Origin: a virus
Taxonomy: Duplodnaviria > Caudoviricetes
Virus record (IMG/VR): IMGVR_UViG_3300015607_000169
Location: 7,842-71,841 of that record
Length of the DNA: 64,000 nucleotides
Strand: one strand, 5' to 3'
In this document: piece after piece, positions 62,971 to 63,233 of the stretch
How the letters are laid out: each line of letters opens with the position of its first letter
Numbering within the stretch: position 1 is the stretch's first letter
Translations under genes and position numbers: made by a program
The notes under the pieces: model-generated
Databases searched by the model: none
Told to the model about the DNA's origin: nothing
The model's input: only the letters and a program-made list of their open reading frames with translations

Positions 62971-62985
62971 TGGCACACTTATTGC
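62971..62985 (+). promoter_or_regulatory. sigma54 consensus TGGCAC-ACTTA-TTGC facing element B
   Basis: Exact TGGCAC-N5-TTGC. Confidence 0.65.
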
Positions 62986-62997
62986 CTCTTGAATGTC

Positions 62998-63083
62998 CTA
63001 AGTGCCTGCAAATAAAGGAGTTGGGACGGGCCGGGCGTCCGGACGCCCCGGCTGCTCTAAGTCCTTTATTCACAAGGGTTTAC
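62998..63083. repeat. 86-bp symmetric palindromic element B
   Basis: 43-bp arms around CGTCC|GGACG; right-hand 26 nt (CTAAGTCCTTTATTCACAAGGGTTTA) identical to element A. Confidence 0.85.
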
Positions 63084-63096
63084 AGCGTTTTCGAAC

Positions 63097-63185
63097 GCAA
63101 AAAGTGTGCCAAGATTGGGCCTGCAAACTTCGTGCCATGCAAGAAAACAAATACCATGCCAATCCTCAAAACAATTTCCGTGCCA
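63097..63185 (-). repeat. Tandem array of four sigma54-like motifs (period 26, 24, 24 nt)
   Basis: TGGCACACTTTTTGC, TGGCACGAAGTTTGC, TGGCATGGTATTTGT, TGGCACGGAAATTGT. Confidence 0.75.
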
Positions 63186-63206
63186 AGCAAGAAAAACCCG
63201 ATCGTC

Positions 63207-63233
63207 CTAAGCCCTTTAGATTCAATACCTTGC
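63207..63233. promoter_or_regulatory. Third IHF-like sub-palindrome (CTAAGCCCTT-N7-AATACCTTGC)
   Basis: Contains ATTCAATACCTTG, one mismatch to WATCAANNNNTTR; lies upstream of the sigma54-like array on the minus strand. Confidence 0.5.

Follow-up and report, generated by a model that had tools for sequence, protein, structure and literature searches.

A 467-nt intergenic gap, located ~1 kb from the end of an IMG/VR viral record, raises the question of what reads a long palindrome at the border between two phage gene cassettes. Two exact copies of TGGCAC-N5-TTGC, the consensus of bacterial sigma-54 promoters such as glnAp2 and pspA, are present in this gap and face inward onto an imperfect inverted repeat with 43-bp arms, as the original prediction had described, and it had been proposed that this arrangement either produces ~90-nt hairpin RNAs or uses sigma-54 polymerase and IHF to bend or melt the DNA or to extrude a cruciform. 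Alone among bacterial sigma factors, sigma-54 stays locked and inactive once bound at a promoter until an activator driven by ATP intervenes, and the hallmark of sigma-54 promoters is an AAA+ enhancer-binding activator with sites ~80-150 bp upstream. Whether the boxes and the palindrome form an RNA gene, promoters, recombination signals or a protein-docking site is considered below in the light of related viral contigs, bacterial genomes and published systems.

Genomic Setting of the Palindrome

The record comprises 71,841 bp, is linear and is estimated to be ~61% complete, and the window, that is, the whole stretch of DNA analysed here, corresponds to its final 64 kb. Head, portal, protease, sheath and terminase genes, all of them T4-like, are found on the - strand of the record, and small + strand genes begin at ~55.5 kb and continue onward. 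No tRNAs were found. The gap separates a DUF932 gene from a gene encoding a 166-aa protein (Table 1). Since the DUF932 gene has its own intrinsic terminator, the palindrome is unnecessary for ending it; a simple terminator scan did not call the palindrome and placed the DUF932 terminator ~60 nt upstream.

The GC content rises from ~37% to ~50% near 60.3 kb (positions 60200-64000), precisely at the onset of a series of TTGAAA-N16-GATAAT promoters. A chimeric assembly was ruled out as the source of this jump, since L005, L010/L029 and G003 share the layout, in which terminase and portal genes are followed by an early region bearing the palindromic element described below, with protein identities of 48-71%. 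A high-GC early region (46-57%) was also observed in the relatives L010 and L029. The series consists of five copies of a 37-nt sigma70-type promoter (60432-60468, 60688-60724, 61592-61628, 61852-61888 and 63272-63308). In four of the five, an ATG is placed 6 nt past the -10 hexamer, which implies leaderless mRNAs, and the fifth copy is leadered, with a ribosome site ahead of 63361. The 37-nt motif was absent elsewhere in the window, and a DNA scan based on the promoter returned no matches. Moreover, the cassette that precedes the first palindromic element (element A) encodes two paralogous 78-aa proteins (60882-61118 and 61214-61450), whose weak similarity to DUF7336 fell below the Pfam cut-off.

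Table 1. Coordinates of genes, palindromic elements, boxes, promoters and terminator at and around the locus, in window positions.
Feature	Position	Strand	Sequence or match	Remark
Box	60332-60346	-	TGGCAC-N5-TCGC	85 nt upstream of first series promoter (60432-60459)
Element A (paralogue)	61456-61539		units 61456-61480 and 61515-61539	unit spacing 59 bp
Box	61554-61568	-	TGGCAC-N5-TTGG	14 nt from element A
Promoter	61592-61628	+	TTGAAA-N16-GATAAT	sigma70-type; leaderless ATG at 61626
DUF932 gene	62114-62893	+	PF06067 2.1e-26, phrog_12094	final gene of cassette 5' of module
Intrinsic terminator of DUF932 gene	62915-62946	+		9-bp stem, 6 GC pairs, then T run
Exact box	62971-62985	+	TGGCAC-ACTTA-TTGC	faces right into element B; 13 nt before first half-site
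Element B, dyad unit 1	62999-63023		TAAGTGCCT-N7-AAGGAGTTG	degenerate; 2 mismatches to TAA-N4-TT-N7-AA-N4-TTA
Element B, GC-rich palindromic centre	63024-63057		axis between CGTCC and GGACG	34 nt vs 28 nt in most relatives
Element B, dyad unit 2	63058-63082		TAAGTCCTT-TATTCAC-AAGGGTTTA	
Exact sigma-54-type box	63097-63111	-		faces left into element B; 14 nt from unit 2
Exact sigma-54-type box	63123-63137	-		tandem
Near-exact box	63147-63161	-	TGGCAT..TTGT	tandem
Near-exact box	63171-63185	-	TTGT	tandem
Lone fifth dyad unit	63208-63232		TAAGCCCTT-N7-AATACCTTG	between tandem boxes and 63272 promoter
Early promoter	63272-63299	+	TTGAAT-N16-GATAAT	sigma70-type; for next cassette (166-aa gene)
166-aa gene	63361-63861	+		in next cassette

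Architecture of the Palindrome and Its Boxes

The palindrome in the gap (element B) has its axis between 63040 and 63041, and 29 of its 43 arm positions are complementary, ~6 sd over the window-wide mean (11.3, sd 3.0), the next best value after elements A and B being 23. It is equalled solely by its paralogue (element A, centred at 61497), which belongs to a 117-nt repeat of the element B region (61452-61568, 78% identity) in which the right-hand box was kept and the left-hand box is absent. The comparison of contigs resolved the element into two 25-bp dyad units of the form TAA-N4-TT-N7-AA-N4-TTA flanking a GC-rich centre, and unit 2 of element B was found to be identical to the second unit of element A and to units of many other viral contigs. 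The DnaA box (TTATTCACA) seen in the unit 2 loop was rejected as an artefact of the initial search pattern, being present in 1 of 261 independently found units, and the IHF-like pattern YAA-N4-TTGATW was matched only in part by a half-site plus loop. In addition, the GC boundary carries an AT-rich degenerate palindrome (60170-60240; AATAAAGGATCCCTTATT; CCCTTAA-N7-TTAAGGG) that looks like a decayed element copy; the box at 60332 lies ~90 nt away from it and is adjoined by no canonical element.

The window holds three exact and four near-exact boxes in total, with GG at -24, GC at -12 and the exact 10-bp spacing. A scan of the window that allowed one mismatch gave seven matches, compared with 1.99 +/- 1.41 in shuffled sequences, none of 100 shuffles reaching seven, and the three exact boxes are the only ones in the full 71.8-kb record, where the reversed-pattern control gave 0. 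Four boxes are arranged in tandem on the - strand across 63097-63185, with start-to-start spacings of 26, 24 and 24 bp; judged by holoenzyme footprints, a tandem spacing of 24-26 bp is too tight for simultaneous holoenzyme occupancy. At element B, the box is separated from the first half-site by 13 nt on the left side and by 14 nt on the right side, and a count of 12 nt from the -12 C leads to the transcription starts that had been predicted at 62997 and 63085. It had also been claimed that no ORF follows the boxes. This is only roughly true: the repeats are overlapped by two mechanical ORFs (96 aa, 63002-63292, and 106 aa, 62955-63275, both +), for which no ribosome site was seen, and the + box also faces the genuine 166-aa gene at 63361.

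A Family of Cassette-Border Elements

The right arm of element B is conserved in many other phage contigs, and an exact 20-mer of this arm occurred in 7 IMG/VR and 22 metagenome contigs, ~18 of them with the same context. Matches to the 20-mer in bacterial genomes (L012, L014-L019) had no element context and were probably due to chance, and no double element was found in the MAG behind L013. Of the 73 instances in which a second unit was present, 58 had a unit spacing of 53 bp, compared with 59 bp in the window. The copies keep a single orientation per contig and are located between small early genes; in the complete 201-kb genome G005, all 14 copies fell at 17.8-34.8 kb, in the early region. 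No cultured relative with the element was found among 50,697 phage records.

The flanks of the elements carry strong sigma70 promoters, which point outward in 169 cases and inward in 17, and their -35 hexamers stand at distances from the element that follow a phase of ~11 bp, clustering at 20, 30, 41 and 52 bp without a box and at 52, 62, 74, 85 and 98 bp with a box. The end of element A is separated from the -35 hexamer at 61592 by 52 bp, inside the cluster of flanks with a box, and element B lies 189 bp from the hexamer at 63272. Between the lone fifth unit and that same hexamer there are 39 bp (index 40), within the phased 40-42 cluster of box-less flanks.

An IMG/VR search with the DUF932 protein recovered L004 as its sole relative (35% identity), which was too distant and contained neither motif. 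DUF932 homologues bordered by the same elements were identified in L029, L036, L026 and G003, and the DUF932 gene was found flanked by elements in four lineages (the window, L029 2207-2947, L036 733-1509 and L026 210-1001). The proteins of these four lineages are 29-36% identical, yet the adjoining 25-nt unit is identical, and from this comparison the DUF932 cassette appears to have been transferred among phages. The box to the right of the DUF932 gene recurs in L029 as CGGCAC-N5-TTGC, 14 nt from the element. L036 and L026 have no boxes in their DUF932 cassettes, and the relative G003 has none at any of its six units, which indicates that the element functions without boxes.

Fixed Geometry between Boxes and Dyad Units

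A composite pattern, in which a box is followed by N13-15 and a dyad unit, was found in 101 IMG/VR stretches, with at most 12 per contig. The reversed-box control gave 0 in the same IMG/VR scan, and the composite pattern itself gave 0 in a sample of 401 Pseudomonadota genomes. It was observed that 91 distinct instances carried 49 different N5 spacers and shared flanking preferences: TGGCAC follows T-T or a T-rich sequence and precedes a purine, and TTGC is preceded by T. Of the 127 boxes that scored at least 9/10 in a set of 304 distinct elements, 121 were found at offset 13-15 and pointing inward. The imperfect boxes (n = 50), which stood at the fixed offset and were not forced by the search pattern, vary at positions 1, 4, 6, 12 and 15, with no change at G3, A5, T13 and G14 and a single change at G2. 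In the unrelated contigs G001 (76 kb) and G002 (33 kb), nearly all boxes of the record were placed 14-15 nt from an outer half-site. Thus, the test set beforehand, namely that relatives should keep the GG-N10-GC spacing and a fixed offset to the palindrome, was passed in unrelated phage lineages as well, and the boxes behave like sigma-54 -24/-12 elements in both consensus spacing and tolerance profile, as had been suggested.

The boxes are optional, being carried by approximately one third of the elements. Typically, a box lies in the stretch that separates the element from the sigma70 promoter coming next, and it stands back to back with this promoter. It therefore points opposite to the genes, towards the element and the end of the cassette before it; a strong sigma70 promoter behind the box was divergent in 60% of cases and ran in the same direction in 3%. 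The + strand box on the far side of the element, after the DUF932 gene, is a rarer arrangement that was also found in L029. Bracketing by two inward boxes did not hold up as a rule, because such pairs made up ~7% of instances (e.g., L083 and L093) and element A has the right box only. The boxes are often packed 20-35 bp apart, and the commonest box-to-box spacings across loci were 20 bp for convergent, 23 bp for divergent, and 26 and 35 bp for tandem boxes. Mirror-image clusters of the form TGGCA-N6-TTGC-N5-GCAA-N6-TGCCA and plus/minus/plus triplets were also observed (G001 25494-25528; G005 31982-32039 and 33614-33671). Furthermore, a precise 21-nt indel, corresponding to two helical turns, distinguishes the otherwise near-identical cassettes of L034 (~300-330) and G001 (29190-29225); it deletes one box in L034 and leaves the sigma70 promoter intact.

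Taken together, these comparisons define a conserved module of cassette borders, which combines a sigma-54-type box and a dyad array at a fixed distance from each other and is phased with an early promoter. Within the collections searched, this module is specific to phage contigs.

Folded RNA or Duplex DNA

The proposed ~90-nt hairpin RNA found no counterpart in the comparative data, and this reading gained no support, no conserved fold, covariation or Rfam match being found. RNAalifold returned 0 consensus pairs for 46 non-redundant predicted transcripts. In 46 non-redundant sequences, the unit hairpins were paired in 81.4% of cells vs 82.7% in shuffles, and the central hairpin in 85.5% vs 85.0%. 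The variable middle bases of the half-sites paired no better than with shuffled partners, folding z-scores were modest (-1.7 to -2.5), the copies in the window and their 53-bp-spaced relatives differ in fold, and neither the predicted transcripts nor the element had a match in Rfam.

Across 165 elements, the two unit halves and the outer half-sites paired below chance (z = -4 to -7.6), the latter (h1:h4) reaching z = -7.6 against shuffled partners. The inner half-sites paired above shuffled partners with z = 4.5, a value that the kinship of the copies could inflate, and a central hairpin or cruciform may form there. Since the half-sites are conserved in sequence without covariation, the behaviour of the element is that of four arrayed half-sites recognised on double-stranded DNA. 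Judged from these sequence patterns, four protein half-sites describe the palindrome better than a single 86-bp hairpin does, and the module looks like protein-docking DNA rather than a hairpin-RNA gene.

Comparison with Known Systems

The promoter-early stem-loop (PeSL) cassettes of T4-like phages were reportedly described by Arbiol et al. in 2010. Comeau et al. (2014; PMC4122927) defined the PeSL as a stem-loop plus an early promoter between plastic early ORFs of T4-like phages and reported that PeSLs mediate cassette exchange. By analogy, the PeSL cassette is the closest published system that the element resembles. Both are intergenic modules found repeatedly among the small early ORFs of the plastic genome region in T4-like phages, and in both a palindrome or stem-loop lies just upstream of a sigma70-type promoter and start codon. 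A link to cassette exchange, as reported for PeSLs, may also hold for the element; a repeated intergenic palindrome in this position is what the T4-like phage of the window displays. Unlike the PeSL, the element consists of four half-sites over 78-84 bp with fixed spacing, is conserved in sequence across unrelated phages and shows no covariation. Moreover, many of its copies bear sigma-54-type boxes, a feature unmentioned in PMC4122927.

A second resemblance, and no more than a resemblance, concerns the element and its position at cassette ends. The attC site of integrons is a four-box imperfect palindrome with a variable centre, found at the end of each gene cassette, and the element shares both this build and this location. 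It differs from attC in sequence, in that each cassette has its own promoter, and in that its outer boxes pair below chance, so the pairing of outer and inner boxes in a folded strand, typical of attC, was not found.

Regarding the boxes, they share with bacterial sigma-54 promoters the -24 GG and -12 GC, the exact spacing, the flanking preferences and the tolerated variants. Unlike those promoters, they have no activator gene, upstream activator site or downstream gene, and they are disposed in tight arrays and mirror pairs facing a dyad array. By ChIP-seq in E. coli, Bonocora et al. (2015; PMC4591121) identified sigma-54 sites that include the variants TGGCAT, CGGCAC, TCGC and TTGT, and the same variants occur among the imperfect phage boxes. 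The E. coli sites also comprised intragenic, antisense and "outside antisense" positions, with holoenzyme bound inactive (PMC4591121). Like the phage boxes, the intragenic and antisense sites are not classical promoters of the adjacent gene; they are scattered singly on the chromosome, whereas the phage boxes form arrays of fixed geometry beside a second conserved element. Literature searches turned up no account of the layout found here, and searches combining sigma-54 and phage found no account of phage-borne sigma-54 promoter elements. Therefore, the layout of boxes and double palindrome appears undescribed, in line with the original prediction.

Candidate Readers of the Module

The reading favoured here, to which a probability of roughly 0.4 is assigned, is that host sigma-54, alone or as holoenzyme, docks at the boxes right beside a dyad-bound protein, forming a poised and mostly non-productive complex. 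The element marks the boundary between phage gene cassettes and would offer a duplex-DNA docking array to a candidate protein. The array stands upstream of a host-type (sigma70) early promoter and keeps helical register with it, much as in PeSL cassettes. The boxes are an optional add-on, placed 13-15 bp outside the outer half-site and facing the array. Such a complex could form a boundary or roadblock ahead of the early promoter that follows, or it could be a sink that takes up host sigma-54. A poised non-productive complex is favoured over a hairpin-RNA gene by the tight packing of the boxes together with the lack of an activator gene, an ORF or a conserved fold. A host reader is favoured because the module spans lineages without detectable shared proteins: G000 shares no proteins with G005, G001 and G002 apart from two weak matches, and no common phage-encoded reader protein emerged from the comparison of G000 with these three. 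Against the docking of sigma-54, approximately two thirds of the elements have no box, dense arrays and mirror pairs would also be expected of an ordinary dimeric DNA-binding protein, and, to our knowledge, a roadblock or sink role has no experimental precedent. A more ambitious version, in which unrelated phage lineages plant sigma-54 docking arrays, locked against protein-bound dyads, that capture sigma-54 or inactive holoenzyme without transcription, is doubtful. In that version, a roadblock or insulator would protect the next early promoter, and a sink would withdraw sigma-54 from host stress and defence regulons.

The boxes could instead function as enhancer-dependent sigma-54 promoters for which the host would supply the activator, perhaps bound at the dyads. 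Short non-coding or antisense RNAs would then begin at the element's edge and extend backwards over the 3' end of the cassette before it, and the + box at 62971 would serve as a second, conditional promoter of the 166-aa gene. This explanation accounts for the exact consensus match, the sigma-54-like tolerance profile, the orientation of the boxes, which is always inward, and the fixed offset, which places the predicted +1 at 1-3 nt before the first half-site. The DUF932 terminator is also terminator-like on the - strand (62935-62916), and the - strand boxes would yield an RNA of ~180 nt ending at this reverse face. The sigma-54-driven small RNAs Qrr, GlmY/GlmZ and CrcZ and the downstream enhancers of FlrC and FlbD count for this explanation. 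The antisense and "outside antisense" sites of E. coli point in the same direction (PMC4591121).

Nevertheless, the activator on which such promoters depend was not encountered. The Pfam profile PF00158 found no activator in G000, G001, G002, G003 and G004, and neither an RpoN DNA-binding domain nor an enhancer-binding protein was identified in five complete genomes (174-201 kb). By the boxes, no upstream activator site was found, the DNA there being the divergent sigma70 promoter, and no gene or RNA with a conserved fold was found downstream of them, where the dyad element and then the 3' terminus of the cassette before it are located. In addition, not all boxes can fire when convergent ones are separated by 20 bp and tandem ones by 24-26 bp, and a protein bound at unit 1 (~+4 to +28) would obstruct the open complex. 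Considering the evidence on both sides, promoter activity of this kind is somewhat unlikely. As a separate observation, weak PF00158 matches were found in frames of ~310 aa in complete module-bearing phages of ~180-200 kb (L149 1378-2304, from G008, and L150, from G006). A full Pfam scan showed the 308-aa protein of G008 to be a RuvB-like Holliday-junction helicase (RuvB_N 4.7e-45), and such a protein may be relevant to palindromes that extrude four-way junctions.

Docking of sigma-54 also has to be weighed against another phage or host DNA-binding protein that reads the box in cooperation with the dyad factor, the sigma-54 identity being coincidental. Mirror pairs and tandem arrays at preferred spacings are typical of transcription-factor operators, the boxes lie upstream of sigma70 promoters with the helical register kept, the clean 21-nt indel drops one box with the promoter undisturbed, and the composite pattern is missing from the 401 sampled bacterial genomes, all of which suits such a protein. 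What makes it unlikely is that all 10 consensus positions match, with the exact 5-nt spacing and fitting flank preferences, and that changes are tolerated solely where sigma-54 promoters tolerate change. Moreover, for lineages with no detectable protein in common, a ubiquitous host factor would be the more economical reader, and sigma-54 qualifies as one.

The least probable explanation, that the sequences are mainly recombination signals and that element, box and promoter form a PeSL-like or attC-like mobile regulatory cassette, conserved through copying among phages rather than through regulator binding by each part, would fit the element-flanked DUF932 cassettes, the confinement of the elements to the small-early-gene region and the cassette exchange reported for PeSLs (PMC4122927), but it is very unlikely, as mobility leaves the invariant 13-15 nt offset, the helical phasing and the sigma-54-like tolerance unexplained and the outer half-sites, unlike those of a folded attC, pair below chance.

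Significance for Phage Biology

A box held in rigid geometry at 13-15 bp from a dyad array constitutes a concrete, testable module present in >100 viral contigs. If sigma-54 binds the boxes, these phages would tie part of their early programme to the enhancer pathway of the host, or would park or trap the factor; this would be new phage biology, and it would name the reader of a very common cassette-boundary element. Capture without transcription, if true, would represent a new viral way of exploiting an alternative sigma factor. If another protein binds, the boxes would be a striking convergence on the sigma-54 site. Either outcome advises caution against sequence-only calls of sigma-54 promoters in phage genomes.
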